Shown here one piece after another: positions 1 to 25,021 of a stretch of 32,000 nucleotides of DNA. The notes beneath the pieces are model-generated. The model worked only from the letters and a program-made list of their open reading frames with translations. It ran no database searches and was not told the origin of the DNA. Position 1 is the first letter of the stretch, and each line of letters starts with the position of its first letter. Origin of the DNA: Candidatus Electronema aureum (GTDB taxonomy: Bacteria > Desulfobacterota > Desulfobulbia > Desulfobulbales > Desulfobulbaceae); the NCBI GenBank assembly GCA_004284765.1, contig NQJD01000002.1, forward strand, positions 90,001 through 122,000, read 5' to 3'. The position numbers were made by a program, and so were the translations under genes.

Positions 1-443
1 TCATCTTCATGCTCAAGACGCTGCTTCACTTCCTCGGCAAGAAAGTTGACAATTCCAGCAAAATGCCGACGTTTTCCGTAATGCGCTTGCTGCGCCAGGC
101 TTTCCGCCAGCACCTTGAGCACATCGCTGTGCGGATCATCGGCGGAGCTGAAATCAATCAGGTAAAAAACTGCTGATTCTTTCCGGTGTTGTGCAGCCAA
201 GGTCAGCAGGCTGGTTGCAATCATGCCTTTAGCCGCTTCATCGTCTTGCCCGACAATCGCCAGATTGCTGCCGCTTTGCCGCCGGAACTGCGCCACAGTC
301 GCCTCTTTGATGGCAATCGGCTCGCCCAGCCAAGCGGAAAAACGTTTCAGCGGCGCGGTAGTTGGAGGATGCAGCAGGCGCGTTGCCTTCAAAAACAATC
401 TGGCTTTGCGGGAAAGCGAAATTTTGCTGCCGGGCCAGAGCAT
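1..443 (-). CDS. Third (degenerate) FtsK-like P-loop domain of the EssC-like ATPase. It lies in a frame offset by one nt from ORF 238..3006 and runs off the left window edge (partial).
   Basis: Minus-strand translation of 3..443 in the offset frame is stop-free to the edge. It reads ..PLKRFSAWLGEPIAIKEATVAQFRRQSGSNLAIVGQDDEAAKGMIATSLLTLAAQHRKESAVFYLIDFSSADDPHSDVLKVLAESL... This parallels the entry into the canonical domain (IPLGPVGANRVQFLELGKGTSHHALIAGKIGSGKSTLLHVLIVNLALTYSPDEVQFYLIDFKKG), but GQDDEAAKG replaces Walker A. It is absent from the ORF track because it has no stop inside the window. Confidence 0.6.
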   Translation of the reverse strand, partial: MLWPGSKISLSRKARLFLKATRLLHPPTTAPLKRFSAWLGEPIAIKEATVAQFRRQSGSNLAIVGQDDEAAKGMIATSLLTLAAQHRKESAVFYLIDFSSADDPHSDVLKVLAESLAQQAHYGKRRHFAGIVNFLAEEVKQRLEHED

Positions 444-3006
444 TAATCTTGTCCAAATATTGATCCCGCTCCTCATCAGGCAGCCATGCGACTTGAAACG
501 GATTGTTGCCTTCAACCAAGCCGTTTGCCGCATTATAGATCGCCTCGCCGGGCCGGGAAAGCAGCCGCGCAGCCGCGTTGTCATCGCTCAGAATCAGGCG
601 GGAATCCGTTTCGCTGCATTGCAAGGCAATTCTGACCGCCATTTGATCAATGGTGCTGCGAGCTAAGGTGTAGGTTCCGGCCAAAGTCTGCGAACCCAAG
701 ATGATATGAACGCCGAAGGCCCGGCCTTGACGCACCAAGCGGTCTAAAATTTGCGAGACCTTGGCAGCGACCGGATCATCTTCTGTGAAAAATTCCTGAA
801 ATTCATCCACAAGCAGGATGATGCGCGGCATGATCTGGCTGGTTTTCCGGCGGTAATTTTTCAAATCGGCAACTTCCGCCTTGCGGAAGAGGTCGCCGCG
901 CCGCTTCAGCAAGGCATCTAAATCTTGCAGAACGCTCAGGCCAAACTCGCGTTCGCTTTCAATGGCGATTACCCGCGCATGAGGCAGAGCATGTGCGGCA
1001 TAGGTTTTGAACTCCACGCCTTTCTTGAAGTCAATCAGGTAGAACTGCACTTCATCAGGGCTGTAGGTGAGCGCCAAATTGACGATGAGGACATGCAGTA
1101 GCGTTGATTTGCCGGAGCCTATTTTGCCAGCAATCAGCGCGTGATGGGATGTTCCTTTGCCCAGCTCAAGAAATTGCACCCGGTTTGCGCCCACCGGGCC
1201 AAGCGGAATGCGGATTTCCTCGGCAGTGCTGCCGCGCTGCCATGCTTCGGGGCTTAGTCCAGCCTTTTCCAAGATTTTTGCAAAGGGAACTTCCACCCGC
1301 ATTGCTGCCACTGCCGCTTTGCCGACCTGACTGATGATGGTGTTGAAATATTCCTGCGCTGGCGGTTCATCCAGCGAGAGCAGGCATTTAAAGTCACGTG
1401 CCCCCCATATTAGCTGATTTTCATTTTCATACGAATGGAAAACTCTAGTATGTCGTCCAATATTTCTGATATCAAATCTATGCGGCATATTTTTTTCACG
1501 ATCGCAAATAATGATGGTGTAGATGCCGCAGCGCGGACCATTTTGGAGAATGCTGATCAAACGGCGCACTGCATCTTCGCTGAAGTTGGCTGGAAAATCA
1601 TTGATGATCAGGAAACGGTACGGTTCCGTCAGCTCGCCTGCATAGGAGTTGAATTCCTCAATGGTTTTGTAAGTGTTGCGCAAATATTTCTGAATGACAT
1701 TCTCAATATGCTCAGTCAGCTCGCCAAGCCGCTGCTCGATATGTCGCGGCTCTGACCATGCTTTTGTTGTGACCAAAGATTCATCGTAATCCGCCAGATG
1801 CAGAAATGCGGCGGCATTTTGACCAAGACCGACAGGATCAATAAAGGTGAAGCGCAGTTTTCCCGGCGGAATTGATGCGGTCAGGCGCAGCAGGAGGGAT
1901 TGAAGCTGCTTGGCGATGAGGTTTCTTTCCTCTCCGTTTATCGAGAAGAGAATTCCTTGCTCAGAAGGAAAGGGCAGCAGAGCGGGCATGGAAAACTGAC
2001 AGTCTTTGATTCTACTTTTGTCTCCATTCCATCGTCCGGTGGTCAGTTCTCCAATGCGAATCATGTCGGGCAGCTTTGATGCGACATTCCAGCTTTGCCA
2101 AAATTCATCATCCCAGCGTGGAGATGAAGTGTCAACAGCTTGCTTGTATGCTGAAATCCTCCGATGCAGTTCTGCTAATTTTGCCTCAAATTCTTTTTGC
2201 GCAGTTTGCCTGATATTTTCGTAATTATCCTCAATCGTTTGAATCCGCTTCTCGTGTTTCTTCTCATTCTCCGCCATTCTCTCATTATAGAGCCGTTCTT
2301 CGTTTTTAATGAGCTGGTCAGCCTTCTGCACGCATTCGTTGTATATTTCTTTTGCCTCTATCGTTATTTGCAAAATATGAGAGTAGTATTTCTTTGGTTT
2401 CAGATAGAAGGTAAATATATAATTAAACTCAATAGATATTGATACAACAAAGGAGAATATTGCCGCTGATAATATCCATAATGTATCGTCGATTCTGTTT
2501 AAGTAGCAAAAAAATTTAGCTATAGTTCCTGTTATTATCCATAAAAAGAAAAATTCTATAAAAAATAGCGCTAATAGACTTTTGACAGTTTTTTTATCAT
2601 TATTAATACACGAGTTTATTTTTCCAGAAAAATCATCTGCTTGATTAAAATATGATTTAAGCGCATCTATAGCAGCTCTATTTTTCTGTACAAATGATTC
2701 TCCTGACGGATATATATTAAATATATCAAAAATATAAGATATTTTTTCTTTTGACTTGCTGCTGCATATAGATAGGTTGTTCATGTATGAAGATAATTCT
2801 CTATTTTTATTATTTATTGCTTGCGTATCTGAATCAAATTGAGATTTAATTTCTTTAGCCGTGTAATTGTAACTATCAGTTGCCTGCTGTTTTTCTTGGT
2901 TGTATCTCCTTTCAACGTCCAGTTTCACCTGATTGTTATCTTTAATAATTTCACCAAATTGTGTCATCAAAACTGTCTGCATTTCATCAAAATTTATCTC
3001 GCTCAT
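238..3006 (-). CDS. Membrane-anchored multi-domain FtsK/SpoIIIE-family ATPase (EssC/EccC-like, T7SS-type)
   Basis: 922-aa ORF with AGGAGG 6 nt upstream of the ATG at 3006. It has two hydrophobic helices (LALFFIEFFFLWIITGTIAKFF and WILSAAIFSFVVSISIEFNYIFTF) followed by a coiled-coil stretch. Next comes a degenerate FtsK-like domain with no Walker A (ILFSINGEERNLIAKQ) and FLIINDF at the Walker B position. A canonical domain follows, with Walker A GKIGSGKST (1102..1128) and Walker B LLVDEFQ (DE at 802..807). The last ~45 codons (238..~380, Arg/Cys/Gly-rich) look like out-of-frame read-through. Confidence 0.85.
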   Translation of the reverse strand: MSEINFDEMQTVLMTQFGEIIKDNNQVKLDVERRYNQEKQQATDSYNYTAKEIKSQFDSDTQAINNKNRELSSYMNNLSICSSKSKEKISYIFDIFNIYPSGESFVQKNRAAIDALKSYFNQADDFSGKINSCINNDKKTVKSLLALFFIEFFFLWIITGTIAKFFCYLNRIDDTLWILSAAIFSFVVSISIEFNYIFTFYLKPKKYYSHILQITIEAKEIYNECVQKADQLIKNEERLYNERMAENEKKHEKRIQTIEDNYENIRQTAQKEFEAKLAELHRRISAYKQAVDTSSPRWDDEFWQSWNVASKLPDMIRIGELTTGRWNGDKSRIKDCQFSMPALLPFPSEQGILFSINGEERNLIAKQLQSLLLRLTASIPPGKLRFTFIDPVGLGQNAAAFLHLADYDESLVTTKAWSEPRHIEQRLGELTEHIENVIQKYLRNTYKTIEEFNSYAGELTEPYRFLIINDFPANFSEDAVRRLISILQNGPRCGIYTIIICDREKNMPHRFDIRNIGRHTRVFHSYENENQLIWGARDFKCLLSLDEPPAQEYFNTIISQVGKAAVAAMRVEVPFAKILEKAGLSPEAWQRGSTAEEIRIPLGPVGANRVQFLELGKGTSHHALIAGKIGSGKSTLLHVLIVNLALTYSPDEVQFYLIDFKKGVEFKTYAAHALPHARVIAIESEREFGLSVLQDLDALLKRRGDLFRKAEVADLKNYRRKTSQIMPRIILLVDEFQEFFTEDDPVAAKVSQILDRLVRQGRAFGVHIILGSQTLAGTYTLARSTIDQMAVRIALQCSETDSRLILSDDNAAARLLSRPGEAIYNAANGLVEGNNPFQVAWLPDEERDQYLDKINALARQQNFAFPQSQIVFEGNAPAASSNYRAAETFFRLAGRADCHQRGDCGAVPAAKRQQSGDCRARR

Positions 3007-3026
3007 TTTAATCCTCCTGTTGGTAT

Positions 3027-3054
3027 GTAGGGGCGAAAAATTTTTCGCCCCTAC
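3027..3054. repeat. 28-nt perfect palindrome GTAGGGGCGAAAAATTTTTCGCCCCTAC between the 78-aa gene and the ATPase gene
   Basis: Read directly: 14-nt arms with no spacer. On the coding (minus) strand it ends 20 nt before the ATPase ATG and just upstream of its AGGAGG. It is not followed by a U-tract. Confidence 0.9.
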
Positions 3055-3063
3055 CGAGTTTGA

Positions 3064-3300
3064 TTAACGCGCATTCCTTCTTATCTGCTCAAAAACATGC
3101 AGAAGATTATCCATTTCTCTCTGCACCAGTCGCACTTGATCAAATAACGGCATCATCACATTTCCGGCAAACTCCTGGCTCACCGGGTCATCCCATTCTG
3201 TTTTCGCCATCTCCCAGCGATGACGCAGCTTTCCCTGCTCTTCATGAAATTCATCAAGCTGCTGCGAAAGCAAAACTACGCATTGATCAAGACTTTCCAT
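3064..3300 (-). CDS. 78-aa helical-hairpin protein with a central W-x-D turn (WXG100-like partner or immunity protein)
   Basis: Start chosen at MESLDQ (ATG 3298..3300), which overlaps the last 14 nt of the upstream 388-aa gene. The longer M at 3360 would sit deep inside that gene. The sequence is helix-biased with TEWDDPVSQEF near the middle, similar to QTWRDQEHQKF in the 90-aa protein. Confidence 0.55.
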   Translation of the reverse strand: MESLDQCVVLLSQQLDEFHEEQGKLRHRWEMAKTEWDDPVSQEFAGNVMMPLFDQVRLVQREMDNLLHVFEQIRRNAR

Positions 3301-4453
3301 GAAAAATAACACCTTCGTGGTAAAAGATGAAATCCTGCTTCCCCTCTGCCAGCTCTGCATTCGCCCTGCTGATTACTTCCGCAACGTTTCCAGAAAACCT
3401 GCCGTTGCTGACAAAATGGAACTCATGAATTTGACCTGTCCTGATCACATTTTTAATCCCTTCAACCTGCTCCTGAAACTCCTTCAGCCTGCCGCTGTAC
3501 GTCCCATGCAAGGCATGTTTGAAATCAACCCCGATCTCTTGCCCGTCAATCCACTGGCCATTCTCATAAAATCGTCGGCAAATCAGCAAATCAGCTTCGA
3601 CAGACCGCCTTTTTCCCGGCAGCTCTTTTGGGTTGAATTTGATTGAAAAATCAAGCCGGTCTGTCTCCGGTTGAATAAACAGCCGCTGCCCGCCGTTGCC
3701 TGCGTTCGAGCCGGAGCGGATCAGCGCAGCCGTGCCCAGCAGCTCATACAGAAAACCGGCAACCGATTTGTTGCGGTTGGCCAGCCGCGATTTCAGGATA
3801 GTTCCTGCCCGCATATCCCGCTGCGGCGAAAACCGCAGCAAACCCAGCGCGTCCGGCGTGACTGATAAAATCAAAGCAACAGTCTGCGACAGCTGCTGAA
3901 GATAGTCAGGGTAGCAGCTTGCGCTGGTGGGATTTTCAGCGGCAATCTGAAGCAGTAGTTCTTTGATCTCTTCTGCCGAAGACGGCTCCTGCGCAGGAAG
4001 AGCCGCCGCGCCACCGTGTTCCGCAGAAGAAAATCCGGCAAAACCAGCTCCGCTTTGCGCATTGACAGCACGGTACGCCTCAAGCTCCATGAACTTCCGC
4101 GCTAAGAACGACTCGGCCTTGGGAATTTCCTCGTGCAAAAAGTGCTGCAACCGGACGGCTTGTTGATGATACTGAGCGGCAGCCTCCTGCGCCTGCCGCC
4201 GCCAATGCAGAACAGCGTTCAGCTCTTCCTCGGCATGACGCAAGTGCTGCCTGTCATTGCGGGAGTTGTCCTGAGCGCGTTCCAGCTCCCGCCGCCCGTG
4301 CCGCTGCCGTTCATCAAGCCATGCTTCCGCCCGCTTGATTTCCCGGTTCACGCGGTCAAGCGTCTGCTGCGCCTCGCTGCGGAATGCCGCCAAACTGCTT
4401 TGCAGCTCCAGCAAAGCCTGAAACGACCGGACATTGGCCTGATTCGCGTTCAT
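3287..4453 (-). CDS. 388-aa modular protein and candidate secreted effector: an N-terminal WXG100-like helical domain, an Ala/Gly/Ser linker, and a ~210-aa C-terminal globular domain
   Basis: The start ATG overlaps the TAA of the upstream gene (TAATG). The N-terminal ~130 aa is heptad-like and helical, with AEAWLDERQ at residue 45. The linker is NAQSGAGFAGFSSAEHGGAAALPAQEPSSAEE. The C-terminal part carries acidic and basic residues spaced like a PD-(D/E)xK core (GFLYELL .. RLDFSI .. VEADLLI .. GVDFKH). This fold assignment is tentative. Confidence 0.7.
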   Translation of the reverse strand: MNANQANVRSFQALLELQSSLAAFRSEAQQTLDRVNREIKRAEAWLDERQRHGRRELERAQDNSRNDRQHLRHAEEELNAVLHWRRQAQEAAAQYHQQAVRLQHFLHEEIPKAESFLARKFMELEAYRAVNAQSGAGFAGFSSAEHGGAAALPAQEPSSAEEIKELLLQIAAENPTSASCYPDYLQQLSQTVALILSVTPDALGLLRFSPQRDMRAGTILKSRLANRNKSVAGFLYELLGTAALIRSGSNAGNGGQRLFIQPETDRLDFSIKFNPKELPGKRRSVEADLLICRRFYENGQWIDGQEIGVDFKHALHGTYSGRLKEFQEQVEGIKNVIRTGQIHEFHFVSNGRFSGNVAEVISRANAELAEGKQDFIFYHEGVIFHGKS

Positions 4454-4725
4454 TATCGCTGATCGATATAGTCGCGGGCGCGTTGAGCCTTTTTCTGAAG
4501 GAAGGGGATATGCTGCTCAGAAATTTGCAAAAACCGCTCAATTTGTTTGACCGTCTGCTGATATTCCTGCGCAAATTTCTGATGCTCCTGATCACGCCAC
4601 GTCTGGCCCAGCGCATTAAACTGCCCGTTGAGCTGCCCCATGCTCTGCCGGAGCTGCATATTGAACTGCTTCAGGTTATGGGAAAAACGGGCCAGCTCTT
4701 CGGGATCAACAATAGCTTGCGGCAT
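4453..4725 (-). CDS. 90-aa WXG100/ESAT-6-like helical hairpin protein (W-x-D variant)
   Basis: Start moved to MPQAIVDPEEL because AGGAGG lies 7 nt upstream of the ATG at 4723..4725. The product is 90 aa and predicted all-helical, with the Trp turn QTWRD at residues 41-45, the position of W-x-G in WXG100 proteins. It is first in an operon that ends with an FtsK-like ATPase. Confidence 0.65.
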   Translation of the reverse strand: MPQAIVDPEELARFSHNLKQFNMQLRQSMGQLNGQFNALGQTWRDQEHQKFAQEYQQTVKQIERFLQISEQHIPFLQKKAQRARDYIDQR

Positions 4726-4769
4726 GGTGAGACCTCCTGTTGTGGTTGCGGTGCCGGTTGTAATTGCCC

Positions 4770-4799
4770 AGCATAACGCGCTGAGAAGCAAGCTGTCAA
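4770..4799 (-). promoter_or_regulatory. Candidate sigma-70 promoter for the T7SS-like operon
   Basis: On the minus strand: TTGACA (4794..4799), 18 nt spacer, TATGCT (4770..4775). It lies about 45 nt upstream of the 90-aa gene start, between that start and the DUF1015 stop. Confidence 0.4.
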
Positions 4800-4816
4800 C
4801 CGGCGCAGATGGTAGC

Positions 4817-6187
4817 TTACAACAAGCCCACCGCCTCATCTAACTTCCGTATCAGCAGGCCGGTGAGGAGCTTCGGATAGAAGAAGGTGGATTTGTGCGG
4901 CATGATGTTGCCGCTATCCGCGACCTTCAGTACCTGTGCCACCTTGGTTGGGTTAAGCAAGAGGAGCAGCGGGGTGTGGCCGTCCTCCACCACGCTCTGC
5001 TTAACTGCCGCATCCAAAGCCTCGTCCGGGTCACTGAGATAGCTAATCAGCTTGCTCGTGGCGCATTGCTCATGGCTGAGACCAAGGCAATGGCTGATCA
5101 GCACCTCAGAGAGAAGCACCACATCTAAATCACGCAGCACTGCTGGTTTATCAGCCAGCAGCGGCCCAGAGATCAGTGCCGCATCCTGAACAACCAGCAA
5201 GAAGGCGCGGTTTTCCCCAGCATGATACACCCCAAAGGCAGGCAGGCCACTGTCTGCGGCAGCTTCGTCCATTCGGTTGAAGGTCTCTGCGATCAGGCTT
5301 TCCCGGCTGCTGTTGCGCACTTCCTCCACCAGCAGGTGCTGCCGCATTCTGTCGGCAAGCTGGTCTGCACTCATCGCGCCTGGCCAGCGCACAAGGCGGT
5401 GCGTGGGCAGAACAGACAGGCCGGGGTCTTCGCAACCGCAGAGGTACATCATGATGAAGTTGCTCGGATGATCGATAGGCAGAGCAGGGTTCGCAGCTAA
5501 AGCACGGCGGCGATACTCCAAGGCAGTGGTGTAACGGTGATGGCCGTCAGCTATATACACCGGCTTATCCACAAAGAACCGCTGCACCTTAGCAATAGCT
5601 GCTGCATCTGTCACCCGCCAGAGGGTGTGCGTGTTGGCATTACCGTCTGTGACCTGAAGGAAAGCTTTGCTCTCCTGCACCTGCTCTAAGGTGCGGATCA
5701 CCTCTTGCTGCGGGTCAGAGTAGATGGAGAATATCTTGCTGAACTGCGCACTACAGGTCTCCATCAGCTTGAGACGGTCGCCAATGACACCGGCAAAGGT
5801 CTTCTCGTGCGGGCGGACAATGCCCTCGCTGAACTCCGCCAGCCCGACCAGACAGACTATGCCTTTGCGGGTCAGCCGTCTGCCGCCGGGGATAGTGTAG
5901 TCGGTGGCGTACAGGTAGATGGCGGGCTGCGCATCGCGGATCAGCACGGCTTCATCCTGCCAAGTAGCAAAGCGGTCGCGGGCTTGCAGATAGCGGCCAT
6001 CGTCCTCAGTCTCACCCTGCGAGGTGTTGCGCAGGTCAAGGTTGATCATCGAGTAGGGGTTCTTCTGGCGCAGCTTCTCGCCGTCTCTGGCAGAAATGAT
6101 GTCGTAGGGAGGAGTGATCACATCCTCCAGCCGGGCAATTTTCTCTTGGTTGTAGCGTACAGCGCGGAACGGGGCAACAGCAGCCAT
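4817..6187 (-). CDS. DUF1015 family protein
   Basis: The 456-aa N-terminus MAAVAPFRAVRYNQEKIARLEDVITPPYDIIS matches the characteristic DUF1015 opening (PF.A.RY ... PPYDVI). Confidence 0.85.
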   Translation of the reverse strand: MAAVAPFRAVRYNQEKIARLEDVITPPYDIISARDGEKLRQKNPYSMINLDLRNTSQGETEDDGRYLQARDRFATWQDEAVLIRDAQPAIYLYATDYTIPGGRRLTRKGIVCLVGLAEFSEGIVRPHEKTFAGVIGDRLKLMETCSAQFSKIFSIYSDPQQEVIRTLEQVQESKAFLQVTDGNANTHTLWRVTDAAAIAKVQRFFVDKPVYIADGHHRYTTALEYRRRALAANPALPIDHPSNFIMMYLCGCEDPGLSVLPTHRLVRWPGAMSADQLADRMRQHLLVEEVRNSSRESLIAETFNRMDEAAADSGLPAFGVYHAGENRAFLLVVQDAALISGPLLADKPAVLRDLDVVLLSEVLISHCLGLSHEQCATSKLISYLSDPDEALDAAVKQSVVEDGHTPLLLLLNPTKVAQVLKVADSGNIMPHKSTFFYPKLLTGLLIRKLDEAVGLL

Positions 6188-19496: not shown

Positions 19497-19519
19497 AATC
19501 TATATGCTAACGATGGTGA

Positions 19520-19975
19520 ATGAAATACGAAACAGTGCATAGCCTCAGCGAGGAAGATTTTAAACGATCAACAGGAGTTCAGCGTTCGACCTTCGCCAAG
19601 ATGCTTGAGGTTGTCGAGCAAGGGCTGCGCAATTTTGGCAGACCGCCAAAATTGGGCCGGGCCGATCAGCTCCTGCTGACCTTGATGTATTGGCTCGAAT
19701 ATCGGACTGAATTTCACATTGGCCTTGCCTATGGCATCAGCGAGTCGGCGGTGTGCCGGACGATTAAAAAGATTGAAAACGCGCTCATTAAGTCGGAGCA
19801 ATTTCACCTACCCAATAAAAAAGCACTTCAGTCCGACAGCATAAAATTTGAAATTACCCTCGTTGATGCCACAGAACAGCCGATTGAACGCCCAAAAAAA
19901 AACAGCGGCAGCATTACAGCGGCAAAAAAAAGTGCCATACTCAGAAAGCGCAGATAATTTCAATGGGTAAACCCC
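19520..19975 (+). pseudogene. IS5/Harbinger-like (HTH_Tnp_4 plus DDE_Tnp_4) transposase fragment, frameshifted and 3'-truncated
   Basis: The HTH region is LLLTLMYWLEYRTEFHIGLAYGISESAVCRTIKKI, followed by the first catalytic segment LVDATEQPIERPKK. After the A9 run (19894..19902) the expected continuation QRQHYSGKKKCHTQKAQII appears only in another frame. The remainder of the DDE domain is absent. Confidence 0.7.
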
Positions 19976-20033
19976 CGGCTTTGCCGGTGGATACTTACTC
20001 AAAAGTAGGTAGCAACTTGGGTTATAATACAAG

Positions 20034-20054
20034 GAAAAATTTTTCGCCCCTACC
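20034..20054 (+). repeat. Half-copy (21 nt exact) of the 3027..3054 palindrome in the leader of the 158-aa membrane protein gene
   Basis: GAAAAATTTTTCGCCCCTACC is identical at 3035..3055 and 20034..20054. In gene-sense orientation the CCCCTAC end lies exactly 20 nt upstream of the start codon at both loci. Confidence 0.9.
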
Positions 20055-20073
20055 TGCCAAAGAGGACAACCCA

Positions 20074-20550
20074 ATGAATATTGACATGCTGGTAAAACAT
20101 CTTCAGAACCCCTTTGCCTTGGCCGGAATCGCCTTCCTGCTTGCGGCGGCGTTCTGGTTTTTTCTGAGCAAAGGACGGAAAAGCAACAAGGCTGCATCAG
20201 GGCGGCTGGACGCAACGCAGGTGATTTATCTTCTCAGCCTGCTGGCTATGCTTGTCCTTGCCGTGCTGATGTGGAACGACCGTGCCATTTCCATGACGCT
20301 GCTCGGCAGTCTGCTGGGCAGCGTCGTCAGCGGCCTGCCGCTTTTGAAGCCTGCGAAGGAAGACAAGTCTGTTCTCAGCACGGTTGGCGAGCAAAGCCCC
20401 TCAGTCCGCAGCGGCGGCAAGGTGACAATCAGCTACGGCGGCGCGGTGTCCGGCGGGAAAAAGGCAGGTGCTGGGCAGGCAGTCACGCAGGGCGGACAAA
20501 GCCCGGCGGTCGAGGCGAAGAAAGATGTGGAAATCAAGTATGAGAAATAA
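20074..20550 (+). CDS. 158-aa predicted membrane protein with a C-terminal tail carrying two QSP..V.I.Y motifs
   Basis: The start is set at MNIDML (ATG 20074) because the upstream 37 codons run into the IS remnant. There are three hydrophobic helices (FALAGIAFLLAAAFWFFL, VIYLLSLLAMLVLAVLMW, ISMTLLGSLLGSVVSGLPLL). The tail contains EQSPSVRSGGKVTISYGG and GGQSPAVEAKKDVEIKYEK. Confidence 0.6.
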   Translation: MNIDMLVKHLQNPFALAGIAFLLAAAFWFFLSKGRKSNKAASGRLDATQVIYLLSLLAMLVLAVLMWNDRAISMTLLGSLLGSVVSGLPLLKPAKEDKSVLSTVGEQSPSVRSGGKVTISYGGAVSGGKKAGAGQAVTQGGQSPAVEAKKDVEIKYEK

Positions 20551-20636
20551 GGCGGCTGGCGTGACGAGGCAGTCGCCGTCTATGAGAAGGTATATTTTTT
20601 CTATTTCCTCATAGGCCGCGCCTGTCTTTTAATAGG

Positions 20637-20684
20637 AAAAATAGATGAGGAAATAGACGCGGCCTATCTGCTCATCTATTTTTT
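20637..20684. terminator. Candidate bidirectional Rho-independent terminator
   Basis: A 13-bp perfect stem AAAAATAGATGAG (20637..20649) / CTCATCTATTTTT (20671..20683) with a 21-nt partly self-paired loop. An A-run lies on one side and a T-run on the other. Confidence 0.55.
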
Positions 20685-20730
20685 GGATTAAAAGGTATAA
20701 AAAATATACTTTCCGGCAGGAGGGGGCGAT

Positions 20731-22408
20731 ATGCAGATGACAACGGGCAATCAGTCGCCGGTGATTGAGGCGGGCGGCAATGTCACGGTCAATTACGGCC
20801 TCGACGAGGAGCGCGTCAAAGCCATGCTGGAGCGGCAGCAGGAGGAGCTGTTCAGGAAGCTGCGCGAGTCCGGCTTTGCGGCGGATGACGGCGAACGCCG
20901 CCTGCTGGAGCAGCAGTTGCAGGCGGTCTCGGCGAAACTGGCCGACATCGAGCGGAGCTACGAGGAGGAGCTGGCGCGGCCAACTTCCCGAAGCCCAGAT
21001 TGAGAACGCGCAAGCCAATTTGCGGCAGGGCGACAAGGACGCGGCCAAATCAGTCTTTCACGGGGTGCTTGACAAGGAAGGCGCGTCAGTCGCGCTGGCC
21101 GCGTATCAGCTTGGGCAGATGGCGGAGGGCGATTTGAATTACGCCGAGGCCATGCGCATGTACAAAAAGGCGGTTGTGCTGGAGGAGGACAAGCCGGAGT
21201 ATCTGCTTGCCGCTGGGAAAATGGCCCGCAAACTTGCGGAGTTCAAGCAGGCGCAGGAATGGCTGGAGCATCTGCGGGAGATCAGGGAGGCGGAGGGAGA
21301 TGGTGCTAACCTCGGCAACGTTCTTAACGAGTTAGCTTTAGTTTATAAAGATCAATTTCAGTTGGCAAAGGCAGATTTTCTGCATCGACGTGCTCTTGAT
21401 GTCAGAGAAAAGATATTTGGCGAAGAACATCAGGATACAGCAGAGAGTTTAAACGATCTTGCCTTTTTATGTAGAGAGCAGTGCAGATATGAGGAGGCTG
21501 AGTCGTTATTTAAACGTGCCGTTGATACCAGAGAGAAAATATTTGGTAAAGATCACCCTGATGTAGCAGAGAGCTTGAATAATCTGGCTGGACTGTATCG
21601 AACGCAGGCGCGTTACACGGAAGCAGAGTTGCTGTATCAACGTTCTTTGGAAATTAAAGAGAAAACGTTAGTACCTCATCATCCTTCCATAGCGACAAGT
21701 TTGAACAATATAGCTATGTTCTATAAAAACAAAGGAAAATATTTTGATGCAGAATTACTCTACCAGCGTGCTCTTTCCATAAAAGAAAAATCAATAGGTG
21801 AAGCCCATCCCTCTTTCGCGATCACATTAAATAATCTTGTAAATCTTTATAGAGATCAGGGTAGATATATCGAAGCTGAACCGTTATATTATCGTGCTCT
21901 TAACGTTAGAGAGAAAATATTTGGAAGAGACCATCAGCATATAGCTGGCAGCTACGAGGGCATCGCCACATTATACAAAAATCAAGGAAAGTGCGCTGAA
22001 GCAGAACATCTTTACCAGAAAGCCATTGATATAAAAGAAAGACTTCTTGGCAAAGATCATCTTTCTCTTGCTGTAACAATATGCAACCTTGCTGATCTTT
22101 ATCAAAATCAAGAAATGTATCAAGAGGCTGAAAAGTTAAATAGCCGTGCTCTTTATATTCGAGAAGAAATCCTTGGAAAGGAGCATCCCTCTGTGGCAAA
22201 CAGTCTAAACAATTTCGCTAATCTCTATAGATTACAAAAAAGATACGCGGAAGCAGAACCACTGTATCAACGTGCCCTATCCATTATGAGGGAAAAATTT
22301 CCCGGCGGCCATCCAAAGGTTGATCGCTATCAGAAAGACTACGACGAGCTGAAACAGAAGATGGCGGAGCAGCAAGCCGCCGCCACTCAAGAGAAAAATC
22401 ATGTTTAA
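20731..22408 (+). CDS. TPR protein with eight kinesin-light-chain-type 42-aa repeats and a ~85-aa N-terminal domain. The reading frame is interrupted near 20970..20985.
   Basis: GGAGGGGG lies upstream of the ATG at 20731. The N-terminal frame (MQMTTGNQSPVIEAGGNVTVNYGLDEERVKAML...YEEELAR) stops at 21003. The TPR frame (..QLPEAQIENAQANLRQGDKDAAKSVF..) is the +1 frame and is open to 22408. The repeats follow the pattern AESLNNLAGLYRTQARYTEAELLYQRSLEIKEKTLVPHHPSI, eight times. Confidence 0.7.
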
Positions 22409-22649
22409 TCTGCAATTGCATGTCCGCCCGCAAACTGAGCAGCGGCTGCGGGCAATCTTGGCCCGTGCGCAGGATAACGCAATGTGCAAGAAAATAAAAA
22501 AGAGAACAATATCAATATTCCCTAGTCGGTGCTGAAGTCGGAGCAGTAGAGGAACGGGTGGCAGATATTTGATGACCTGCCATGCTTTATAACTGTTTTC
22601 CCTCAAAATGCTATTCATCCTAAGGAGCTAAAAATTGTTTGCGGCTACC

Positions 22650-23450
22650 TTATGCAAGTGGGTCAGTTAGCTTATCCGTAAGGGCAGAAATCTCCCGATC
22701 TATGTTCTTTATATCCGCTACTATCGGTTTTGCTGTTTCGGGAGATTTTTCGAGAGCCAGCCTTAATATACTCATCCAATTAAGGTTGTTTCTTGCTCTT
22801 GCCGCTTCGATTTGATCAATAGGATGCGGATATTCTTTCTCATTATCTTGCGGCCATTGAATGAATACAGAGAATTTTTCAAAAACTTTATCATATTTTT
22901 TTTGAATTTCTTTGTAACCAGCAAGCCAATCCTCTTTCGTTAAACCGAGGAGGTGAACACCTATGCGCGCGCCATTTTTAAAAATATTTGAACGTAGGAA
23001 TCCCTCCTCCTGAAACAAAAATTTTTTATGCAATTTTACAACTGCATCGTTTCCTTCGATTACTTCGCAATTTAATTTTTCTACCCCTAATGAGTTAAAA
23101 ATAAAATTAATCAACGAATACTCAAGAGCTGACCCAAGCCCTCCCCATACGTTTTCCGTTACATAATACCCCCAATCCGCTTTTTTATGAAGGCGATCAA
23201 TTGCATTGACACTTATAACGCCTAATGGCTTATGTACTTCGTCTAAAACAGCAAAAACAATTTTTCTGTCGTCTTGCTTGAGTCGGTTTATCCAACCTAA
23301 ATGTTCATTTGCTTCGATAATGTGGTCTGTGTACATCCATTTTCGTACATTTTCCTCGTTTCTAATTTCTCTGACCTTCATCTGTGATTCTGTATCGAGA
23401 AAGGTCAAGAGAACAAGATTGATTACCTTTGGATTTACTGAATTCATCAT
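22650..23450 (-). CDS. GNAT-family N-acetyltransferase (PseH-like N-terminal domain) with a ~85-aa C-terminal extension
   Basis: AAGGAGA lies upstream of ATGATG at 23450. The layout LLTFLDTESQMKVREIRNEENVRKWMYT..EHLGWINRL..VFAVL..LGVISVNAID....ADWGYYV..LGVEKLNCEVIEGNDAVVKLHKKFLFQEEG resembles PseH-type GNATs. The gene is about 35% GC, clearly below the surrounding sequence. Confidence 0.7.
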   Translation of the reverse strand: MMNSVNPKVINLVLLTFLDTESQMKVREIRNEENVRKWMYTDHIIEANEHLGWINRLKQDDRKIVFAVLDEVHKPLGVISVNAIDRLHKKADWGYYVTENVWGGLGSALEYSLINFIFNSLGVEKLNCEVIEGNDAVVKLHKKFLFQEEGFLRSNIFKNGARIGVHLLGLTKEDWLAGYKEIQKKYDKVFEKFSVFIQWPQDNEKEYPHPIDQIEAARARNNLNWMSILRLALEKSPETAKPIVADIKNIDREISALTDKLTDPLA

Positions 23451-23564
23451 AAGTCTCCTTTCTGTACTCATTTTGTAAAATTTAAATGCGTAATTTCTAG
23501 CCTAAGATGCATTGACATTGATACAACAATTCCCCGCTTTATGGTAATAGCTACCCATGAGTGA

Positions 23565-23924
23565 TCAATGAAACAAAATACAATCGTTGTAGTGATTAAT
23601 AAATCTCCAAACATATGCAGTTAAATTTTCAATGCTTCTCGAAAACGACAATGTCTTCCTGATTAATACCGACACTCTTTGCCTGAATGTTAAATTAATC
23701 CTTTCGATATGACTTTTTTTTCCGCTTCCTTTACTGACAACGCTGTGTCTTTCTGCAGGAAATACTTTTCCGTAAGAGGTCAAGCCGTCTGTGAAAAATA
23801 TTCCGTTCTTTTTGCAGTCTTCAGAAAGTGACTTCCACAGGGCAGCAGCTTCGGTATCGTCTCTTTTTCCGACAAAAGTCCACATCTCGTCGGCTTCTAT
23901 AAAAATTTTTCCATCTTTAGACAT
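23565..23924 (-). pseudogene. IS1-family transposase (InsB-like) C-terminal fragment
   Basis: ADEMWTFVGK, FFTDGLTSYGKVFPAERH and IERINLTFRQRVSVLIRKTLSFSRSIENL match the conserved IS1 InsB C-terminal half. The N-terminal half and InsA are missing, and an internal segment after VGK appears to be deleted. Confidence 0.75.
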
Positions 23925-23969
23925 GCAGAAAGCCTGTCTTCTGGCTTCATCCCGTTTTTTTTAATAGGT

Positions 23970-25021
23970 GAATTCAACTTGTAAGTGCAACTTTTGTCTG
24001 GTTGTAAAAAAAGTGAGTTGTGGTAGTATGATGGCTCATTTCTTACCGCCAAGCAAGAGGAGCACGGATGAAAAACTACACACAAGTCACCGAAGCAGAA
24101 CGTAATCAAATTTACGCGTTAAAGCAAGCAGGGCATCAGAAATCAGCGATAGCCTTGCAGCTTGGCCGACACAGATCAACTATCGGTCGAGAATTGCAGC
24201 GTAATTGCGGTGAACGCGGCTGGCCCAAGCAGGCACAACAACTGTCTATTCAACGCCGCCAAGAAAAGGCAGAGCGGAGAATTTCTGAAGAAATATGGCC
24301 TATTGTCAATGATCTTCTCCGCGAAGATTGGAGTCCTGAACAAATCAGCGGCTGGCTATCCGCAACCAAAAATCTTCAGGTCAGTCATGAACGAATCTAT
24401 CAACATGTTGCCCATGACAAGCAGCACGGAGGAACGTTACATCTCCATCTACGAAAGAAGAAAACGTTATGGCAGCACTGACCGCCGGGGCAAGATTAAA
24501 AACCGGGTCTCGATAGATCATCGCCCCAGCATCGTTGAAGAACGTTCTCGGATTGGTGATTGGGAGGTGGATACGGTGATCGGTCGTCGGGGAGGAGCTG
24601 TTCTTGTCACCTTGGCAGAACGGAAGACGCGAGTTATCGCTCTTGCCCCGAATAAACGGGCAGATAGCGTCAATCAGGCACTTGTCCAAGCCCTTCTTCC
24701 CTGCCAAGACCAAGTTCATACCCTAACCTGCGACAACGGCAAGGAATTTGCCTTGCATCAGGAGTTCGCAAGCACTCTTCAGGCAGACTGCTTCTTCGCG
24801 CATCCGTATCAGGCTTGGCAACGCGCGGCTCAACGAAAATACGAACGGACTTATACGGCAATACCTCCCAAAAGGAGCGAGCTTTGACACGCTGGACACG
24901 CAGGATGTCAAAGCTATTATGGAAAAGCTCAACAACAGGCCTCGAAAATCTCTTGGATTTAAAACACCAAAAGAGCTATTTTTGGGAGACTACTTAACGG
25001 TTGCACTTGGAACTTGAATTC
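23970..25021 (+). mobile_element. IS30-family insertion sequence (about 1.05 kb) with recognisable terminal inverted repeats and an inactivated transposase
   Basis: IRL is GAATTCAACTTGTAAGTGCAAC (23970..23991). The reverse complement of IRR (25000..25021) is GAATTCAAGTTCCAAGTGCAAC, giving 19/22 identity. No clear target-site duplication was seen. Confidence 0.85.
24068..25017 (+). pseudogene. IS30-family transposase with at least two frameshifts
   Basis: Three consecutive frames together give a full IS30 transposase. The first frame holds the HTH region (ERNQIYALKQAGHQKSAIALQLGRHRSTIGRELQRN). The second holds IGDWEVDTVIG and TCDNGKEF. The third holds NENTNGLIRQYLPKG..MEKLNNRPRKSLGFKTP. The breaks are near 24455..24480 and 24820..24840. 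Confidence 0.85.

Follow-up and report, generated by a model that had tools for sequence, protein, structure and literature searches.

A probable polymorphic effector with a tethered Mrr-like nuclease domain in a minimal type VII-like WXG100/FtsK-ATPase operon of Candidatus Electronema aureum

Export by type VII secretion systems (T7SS) and the polymorphic toxins associated with it are regarded as a Gram-positive and mycobacterial feature. In the WXG/LXG toxins, which include the Staphylococcus aureus nuclease EsaD, Streptococcus intermedius TelA-C and the Bacillus subtilis LXG proteins (PMC3482391; PMC10801868), an N-terminal helical trafficking domain is joined through a low-complexity linker to a variable C-terminal toxin-type domain, and the genes adjoin those for small helical partners and an EssC/YueA-like FtsK ATPase. 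Nucleases are frequent among the payloads, and T7SS polymorphic toxins that carry them are already well known. Several of the restriction-endonuclease (REase) fold families Tox-REase-1 to -10 are linked to T7SS (WXG/LXG) and display E, D and ExK signatures (Zhang et al., 2012, PMC3482391). The same survey describes 'mobile versions of T7SS' in which solo WXG genes accompany a separate kind of YueA-like ATPase that has three HerA/FtsK domains, only the middle one active (Table 1, footnote 6). Here we analyse a 388-aa protein encoded by a four-gene operon in a 32,000-nucleotide stretch (the window) of the Candidatus Electronema aureum contig NQJD01000002.1, positions 90,001 to 122,000. Our reading is that this protein probably serves a minimal T7SS-like WXG100/FtsK-ATPase system as a polymorphic effector, with a tethered Mrr-like nuclease as its payload.

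The operon lies on the minus strand and encodes a WXG100 protein, the 388-aa effector-like protein, a 78-aa protein hereafter called SMALL, and an FtsK/EssC-like membrane ATPase. The first gene (4453..4725; likely start ATG 4725 behind AGGAGG) specifies a bona fide WXG100 protein of 90 aa with a W-R-D motif at residue 43 (Pfam WXG100, E=3.4e-8, above the cut-off; NCBIfam WXG100_ESAT6, E=1.8e-6). Its stop codon overlaps the ATG of the effector gene (ATAATG). The open reading frame (ORF) of 388 codons at 3287..4453, read from 4453 to 3287, was confirmed on the minus strand by gene overlaps, family conservation and an AlphaFold2 model. Its final 14 nt overlap the start of the SMALL gene (3064..3300), and a 58-nt spacer separates SMALL from a 922-codon FtsK/SpoIIIE ORF (238..3006).

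This locus shares with the WXG/LXG toxin systems the helical N-terminus, linker and C-terminal toxin-type domain of the effector, as well as the adjoining small helical partners and EssC/YueA-like ATPase. It differs in that the N-terminal module matches neither Pfam WXG100 nor Pfam LXG and lacks W/LxG at its turn, in that no immunity gene follows, in that EssA/EssB/EsaA and EccB/D/E were not found nearby, and in its host, a diderm deltaproteobacterium; moreover, the ATPase begins with a coiled coil instead of FHA domains and has one active domain only. With the mobile T7SS it has in common an ATPase whose single Walker A sits in the middle of three domains, the two on either side being degenerate, linkage of that ATPase to a WXG100 gene, a patchy phyletic spread that includes diderms, and signs of mobility (see below). 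Beyond those systems, it has a second hairpin protein, which bears the effector domain, and as a third a small protein of WXG-like type; its lineage is not listed among them.

The effector was modelled with AlphaFold2 from an alignment of 108 relatives (mean predicted local distance difference test score, pLDDT, 82.5). Helices 2-62 and 68-133 form an N-terminal hairpin with its turn at 63-67 (residues 1-133; 4055..4453), a putative trafficking or docking domain resembling the WXG100 superfamily. Residues 134-159 (3977..4054), rich in Ala, Gly, Ser and Pro, have no secondary structure and a pLDDT below 50 over 135-153, as expected of a flexible linker; Gly-rich linkers occupy the equivalent position in loci L054 and L055. 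Residues 160-388 (3290..3976) fold as one module, which when modelled alone reached a pLDDT of 88.6 and a predicted template modelling score (pTM) of 0.88. It comprises a helical subdomain (160-225) and a predicted PD-(D/E)xK, Mrr-like core (231-379). The initial annotation, made from the sequence alone, had proposed both the ORF and this three-part architecture, and the model agrees with it. The same annotation placed a W-L-D turn at residue 45; W45 instead lies in the middle of helix 1 (pLDDT 91). W45-L-D was considered as the WXG turn and rejected, because of this position and because in a profile-profile alignment the WXG100 tryptophan falls about 8 residues further on, at an H-G dipeptide. 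A W/L-x-G motif at the hairpin turn is not present in the 388-aa protein.

The order of elements in the C-terminal module (alpha 231-246, beta 265-273, beta 285-297, beta 300-312, alpha 323-338, beta 344-349) corresponds, in the AlphaFold2 model, to the alpha-beta-beta-beta-alpha-beta restriction-endonuclease core. The first helix bears E237, D288 sits where the second strand starts, and the third strand has D310-F-K312, 22 residues separating D310 from D288; the canonical motif is thus present. An earlier statement that the canonical E-x-K is missing does not hold, since D310-F-K312 is a regular (D/E)xK. The four motifs singled out at that time, GFLYELL (holding E237), RLDFSI (D265), VEADLLI (E286 and D288) and GVDFKH (D310 and K312), proved to be the most conserved columns of the family: these six charged residues are invariant in an alignment of 12 members and at least 90% conserved in one of 108, where the near-invariant positions are G204, E237, L258, D265, G270, E286, D288, D310, K312 and F347. 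The predicted catalytic span covers 3518..3745 (E237, 3743-3745; D288, 3590-3592; D310, 3524-3526; K312, 3518-3520).

Foldseek comparison of the modelled C-domain with the PDB, the check suggested at the outset, returned BstEII, AF1548 and BamHI among its best matches, together with Can2, Card1, Mus81, PaqCI and the N-domain of Rpb5, which is REase-like. The match to AF1548 (PDB 1y88) had a root-mean-square deviation (rmsd) of 3.5 A over 117 columns and a probability of 1.0. Among viral models, the best matches were annotated 'Restriction endonuclease' (phage, E=8.5e-4) and 'Mrr domain'. Pfam Mrr_cat matched 9 of the 108 relatives (best 1.7e-6), NA-iREase1 matched two and pPIWI_RE_REase one. 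The window protein itself fell below the gathering score of Mrr_cat (PF04471), with no match at E<=1, and by these sequence comparisons the C-domain appears to be a divergent sister family of Mrr_cat rather than a member. Taken together, the topology, the near-invariant residues, the structural matches and the Mrr_cat relatives bear out a fold call that had been rated weak: a PD-(D/E)xK fold with an intact predicted E237/D288/D310-x-K312 centre is well supported.

Like Mrr_cat and AF1548, the domain combines the alpha-beta-beta-beta-alpha-beta core with E...D...(D/E)xK residues. Unlike Mrr, the window protein has the extra helical subdomain 160-225 and conserved R293, H313, H346 and N350, and it is without an N-terminal winged-helix DNA-binding domain. 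It resembles Tox-REase-1 to -10 in carrying a restriction-endonuclease-fold domain as a C-terminal payload; its signature, however, is E, D, ExD, DxKH and HF.N, and neither the domain nor its relatives matched the Tox-REase models in Pfam. Tox-REase domains also have assigned immunity families (Imm49, Imm52, Imm54 and others), of which none was seen here.

Searching for relatives of the nuclease domain yielded 11 with a word-index search and 199 with a profile search of 1.84 billion representatives. Of about 156 family representatives, just four have the N-terminal hairpin: P0001, P0002, P0090 and the window protein. In all seven genome loci recovered, from Acidobacteria, Holophagales and several Alphaproteobacteria, and in L003, the nuclease-like gene is the first of a conserved four-gene cassette whose products measure about 370 aa (the REase-like protein), 490 aa, 335 aa and 1600 aa, the last being a DEAD/Helicase_C protein with a KH domain. 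The loci are L009-L015 and L003, with L013:7518-15870 as an example. In the L004 variant, a gene for 291 aa is followed by genes for 926 aa and for a 1336-aa Helicase_C protein, so that one 926-aa gene replaces the two middle ones. The cassette had no match in PADLOC, its two middle proteins had none in Pfam, and it may be an undescribed defence-type system. In P0123, P0136, P0142, P0143 and P0149 a C-terminal Endonuclea_NS_2 domain follows the REase-like domain; these proteins may be double nucleases, or else use the REase-like domain as an accessory module. The initial annotation would have taken homologues that lie consistently outside WXG/FtsK contexts and play a housekeeping role as evidence against its reading, and this applies in part. 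Some 195 of the 199 relatives do lie outside such contexts; their distribution is patchy and their setting a defence-like helicase cassette, which does not point to housekeeping.

The N-terminal module could not be followed by a word-index search: the N-domain alone gave no match, its 91%-identical ortholog included. Its family was recovered through the neighbourhoods of ATPase homologues together with a pattern scan of metagenomes. Next to these ATPase genes stands a WXG100 gene, followed by one for a protein whose first ~135-170 residues align with the window protein. An alignment of four sequences of this N-module has 25 invariant columns, including V8, S10, A13, L14, F24, E27, Q29, L46, E48, R49, A74, E75, E77, L78 and Y127, and scanning metagenomes with it gave 38 loci. 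The N-module gene is directly preceded by a WXG100 gene in 38 of 38 metagenome loci with upstream sequence; a SMALL gene (66-83 aa) follows it in most, and the ATPase comes next where the contig reaches. In L005, L001 and L058, which also carry the REase payload, the order WXG100, effector, SMALL, ATPase is as in the window.

At least six unrelated classes can be told apart among the C-termini that follow the N-module, besides payload-less forms of 115-210 aa. Those identified include a DUF6782 HExxH metallopeptidase (E=2.3e-8) and a DnaJ-type zinc finger; others contain transmembrane segments. One N-module joined to at least six unrelated C-termini constitutes a polymorphic-effector architecture. 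The commonest alternative payload (~230 aa; loci L026-L042, for example L028:3715-4905) opens with a hydrophobic stretch rich in Gly and Ala (FATAVGLAALGVGLTAAAIA) that recalls the T7SSb glycine-zipper membrane toxins, and it continues with 'GFDRVF...LIVLESKV', which resembles D...ExK. It did not match the REase family in hhalign, where its sequences, nearly identical (effective number of sequences, Neff, 1.2), are too alike to judge. Long-form N-modules (L016:2743-3759, L019:9829-10641 and P0090) have an insertion of ~36 residues with two conserved cysteines at the tip of the hairpin, which is absent from the window protein and L001.

Kinship of the N-module with WXG100 proteins is less distinct. 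Hidden Markov model (HMM) comparisons among the N-module, SMALL and WXG100 gave cross-matches with E from 7e-5 to 9e-4, and the N-domain profile found only a faint match to EsxB in the PDB (E=0.17). SMALL aligned with WXG100 in hhalign at P=5.8e-4, its W-x-D lying over W-R-D; its own profile had no match in the PDB. From these profile comparisons, a relationship of both the N-module and SMALL to WXG100 is plausible but weak. Of the WXG100-like N-terminus first proposed, then, the helical hairpin stands; there is no Pfam WXG100 or LXG match, and the link to WXG100 is only weakly significant.

SMALL had been put forward as the immunity protein of the effector. Its invariant residues are W29, E30, W36-x-D38-P39-V40 and F44, and its orthologs accompany every payload class in the metagenome loci. 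A protein conserved whatever the payload is a component of the system and not an immunity protein, and the candidate was rejected on this ground; SMALL itself would be a WXG100-like helical partner, as judged from alignment and hhalign. The T7SS polymorphic-toxin architecture originally envisaged thus survives in its N-module, linker and payload and in its linkage to a WXG100 gene and an ATPase, and loses its downstream immunity gene. Beyond the four-gene set, no gene is specifically shared by the REase loci (window, L005, L001 and L058). At L001 (9383-10324), a 41%-identical locus, three unrelated small genes stand between SMALL and the ATPase; their products are of 79 aa, of 144 aa (aspartyl-protease-like) and of 82 aa (HicB-like). 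Unlike the REase loci, the metallopeptidase loci have an extra gene between effector and SMALL. In L016 this gene (3787-4347), located behind that of the effector with the DUF6782 metallopeptidase, encodes a PsbP-like protein of 186 aa (Pfam, E=1e-3). PsbP/MOG1-like proteins are toxin adaptors next to type VI secretion system (T6SS) toxins (Zhang et al., 2012, PMC3482391), and the L016 protein could be an adaptor or an immunity protein.

The ATPase ORF matches Pfam FtsK_SpoIIIE (E=4.6e-31) and scores better with the NCBIfam models for EccCa (1.5e-33) and EssC (5.9e-31) than with that for FtsK (3.6e-10). An N-terminal coiled coil and two hydrophobic segments precede a degenerate domain and an active domain, whose canonical Walker A reads GKIGSGKS in the window and GKTGSGKS in the L005 ortholog. 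That ortholog is intact (1151 aa), likewise has the N-terminal coiled coil and two hydrophobic segments, and contains a single G-x4-GK[ST], at residue 626; its C-terminal domain shows homology to the active one (E=1e-7) but its P-loop is degenerate, and a further, N-terminal domain is weakly similar to the active one (E=0.07). In the window, the third, degenerate FtsK-like domain is encoded out of frame in a continuation of the gene (1..372, minus strand) that runs off the window start. Homologues of the ATPase number 1187 at E<=1e-20, mostly from Chloroflexi, with Poribacteria and Ca. Vecturithrix also named, and elsewhere they carry differing N-termini (WD40, kinase, zinc ribbon or STAND-like). 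GC content is 0.335 over window 2001-3000, the 5' third of the gene, versus 0.50-0.58 around it; a swap by recombination of the ATPase N-terminal module (window 2001-3006, coiled coil plus hydrophobic segments) is suggested.

Rates of substitution were computed against L005, whose effector ortholog is 91% identical. The ratios of nonsynonymous to synonymous substitution (dN/dS) were 0.05 for WXG100, 0.16 for the effector (N-module 0.18, C-module 0.16), 0.10 for SMALL and 0.18 for the ATPase, and all four operon genes are under purifying selection relative to L005. Synonymous divergence (dS) was 0.19-0.36 in the operon genes and 0.84 in the adjacent DUF1015 gene (window 238-6187 versus L005), a difference which suggests that the operon was exchanged between lineages after the flank had diverged. 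A tblastn search against plasmids gave no match.

In the mechanism that we propose, the 133-residue hairpin would serve as a constant docking module that bundles with the translationally coupled WXG100 protein, with SMALL or with both; the analogy is with Esx heterodimers and, in T7SSb, with LXG-Lap complexes. The ATPase, anchored in the membrane and built of three domains of which the middle one alone has a Walker A, would then receive this complex. The flexible linker of ~26 residues would tether the nuclease payload. Most likely this payload is a metal-dependent DNA-cutting enzyme, and it may have been recruited by recombination from a family otherwise found first in the helicase-containing four-gene cassette. 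Export driven by the ATPase, and use as an antibacterial toxin, would complete this scheme. As there is no cognate immunity gene, the nuclease is probably harmless to the producer, and it could be so either by staying inactive until release or activation, or by being limited to foreign or modified DNA like Mrr-type enzymes.

Several observations weigh against a polymorphic effector of this kind. Export of the protein is predicted only, by analogy. The host is a diderm (Desulfobulbaceae) with no outer-membrane component near the operon, and none of EssA/B, EsaA, EccB/D/E or MycP is encoded near it in the gene neighbourhoods of the window, L001, L005, L016, L018 and L019. No immunity candidate common to the four REase loci was found. 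The usual setting of the nuclease domain in the helicase cassette weakens the secreted-toxin step, and payloads such as the zinc finger, or the absence of a payload, are not toxin-like. The 388-aa protein has no family match in Pfam (E<=1), NCBIfam or PADLOC, and no meaningful match came from searching the PDB by sequence and by profile, with the whole protein or with the profile of its family. Over its full length, the N-module aligned with the operon's own WXG100 family in hhalign at P=1.3e-3, which is marginal, and the Foldseek E-values for the C-domain are only ~1e-3, though the match lists are uniform. Finally, relative to the 91%-identical L005 locus, a net deletion of 41 nt at ~358-372 shifts the ATPase frame just before its third domain.

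This deletion raises the possibility that the operon of Ca. Electronema aureum is a decaying remnant, with an inactivated ATPase and a functionless effector. The 922-aa ORF is identical to an annotated protein of the species that likewise ends at 922 aa, and an ATPase frameshifted before its last domain means that this copy of the system may be crippled. The deletion itself reflects either real pseudogenisation or a split gene, or else an assembly error, and the third domain could also be made separately; meanwhile, the other three ORFs (effector, WXG100 and SMALL) are intact and, measured against L005, evolve under purifying selection. We therefore regard decay as possible and yet doubtful; it is in any case compatible with the other readings, concerning this copy alone and being silent on the nature of the system. 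A quite improbable alternative is that the C-domain is a non-catalytic REase-fold module for DNA binding or protein interaction and the protein not a nuclease at all. Such a module would explain the absence of an immunity gene, and it gains from the two relatives that match the 'inactive REase' family NA-iREase1 and from those that carry Endonuclea_NS_2 as a second, bona fide nuclease domain. It is unlikely because conservation of the predicted catalytic residues E237, D288, D310 and K312 reaches at least 90% among 108 diverse relatives and all four are intact here, whereas inactive REase domains normally lose them; the dN/dS of 0.16 for the C-domain also speaks against it.

The remaining alternative retains the nuclease and relocates its action. 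The operon would then be an intracellular conflict or defence system in which the FtsK-like motor takes hold of invading DNA at the membrane, WXG-like hairpins dock swappable effectors, and the nuclease acts on foreign DNA inside the producer. The lack of an immunity gene at the REase loci and of an outer-membrane component near the operon of a diderm host fits this arrangement, as does the occurrence of nearly all relatives of the nuclease domain in a defence-like helicase cassette. In PADLOC, moreover, the ATPase domain resembles SspH and mad8, and the varied N-termini of its homologues (WD40, kinase, STAND-like) are of kinds frequent in conflict-system NTPases. Even so, the ATPase is far closer to EccC/EssC (1e-33 and 6e-31) than to FtsK (4e-10), a WXG100 partner is the hallmark of T7SS substrates, the HExxH metallopeptidase and the hydrophobic Gly/Ala-rich payloads fit exported toxins better than defence directed at DNA, and PADLOC had no match for the effector, WXG100 or SMALL. 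On this evidence an intracellular system is unlikely, and we favour the polymorphic effector of a minimal T7SS-like system.

Two further elements of the operon were noted on the minus strand. A sigma-70-like promoter candidate, TTGACA-18-TATGCT (4770..4799; 10 of 12 matches), lies upstream of the WXG100 gene; with one site found and 1.0 expected by chance, it is suggestive only. Between the SMALL and ATPase genes is a perfect, GC-rich stem-loop of 12 bp (3027..3054; -26.6 kcal/mol, z=-4.7) without a U-tract 3' of the stem; it may act in attenuation or mRNA stability and could set the ratio of the small proteins to the ATPase. The neighbours of the operon in the window are housekeeping genes (DUF1015, acetylglutamate-kinase-like or argB-like, lptA/B-like and rpoN). 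Unrelated to the operon, a region of low GC (0.37-0.46) at window 19500-24900 holds, by eye, transposase-fragment-like ORFs at 19520-19957 and 24068-24887, the latter apparently frameshifted, together with a 547-aa repeat-rich protein and a 273-aa ORF.

In the literature searched, we found no description of the N-module family, of an operon of three WXG-like proteins with a one-active-domain ATPase, of such a system in a deltaproteobacterial cable bacterium, or of an immunity-less Mrr-like payload shared with a helicase cassette; the only mention found of WXG/FtsK pairs in diderms is the 2012 table footnote, which concerns 'solo WXG' systems without toxins (PMC3482391). The locus indicates that minimal WXG/FtsK systems carry a dedicated effector family, built of an N-module absent from Pfam and NCBIfam and of swappable payloads, and its nuclease module links two kinds of conflict system. 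It also prompts one to ask how cells that have no immunity gene tolerate a nuclease payload. Tentatively, a stripped-down, horizontally mobile T7SS-like module might handle swappable payloads without cognate immunity in diderms, cable bacteria included, which would imply either an undescribed export route in Gram-negative-type cells, or a role of the WXG hairpins as adaptors by which effectors dock to an FtsK-type motor in intracellular defence. As it consists of four genes and offers a clear candidate for the substrate as well as catalytic residues predicted for mutation, the system is experimentally tractable. Ca. Electronema aureum is a multicellular filamentous bacterium, and although the system is possibly damaged there, a role in kin discrimination or defence would be of interest in such an organism.

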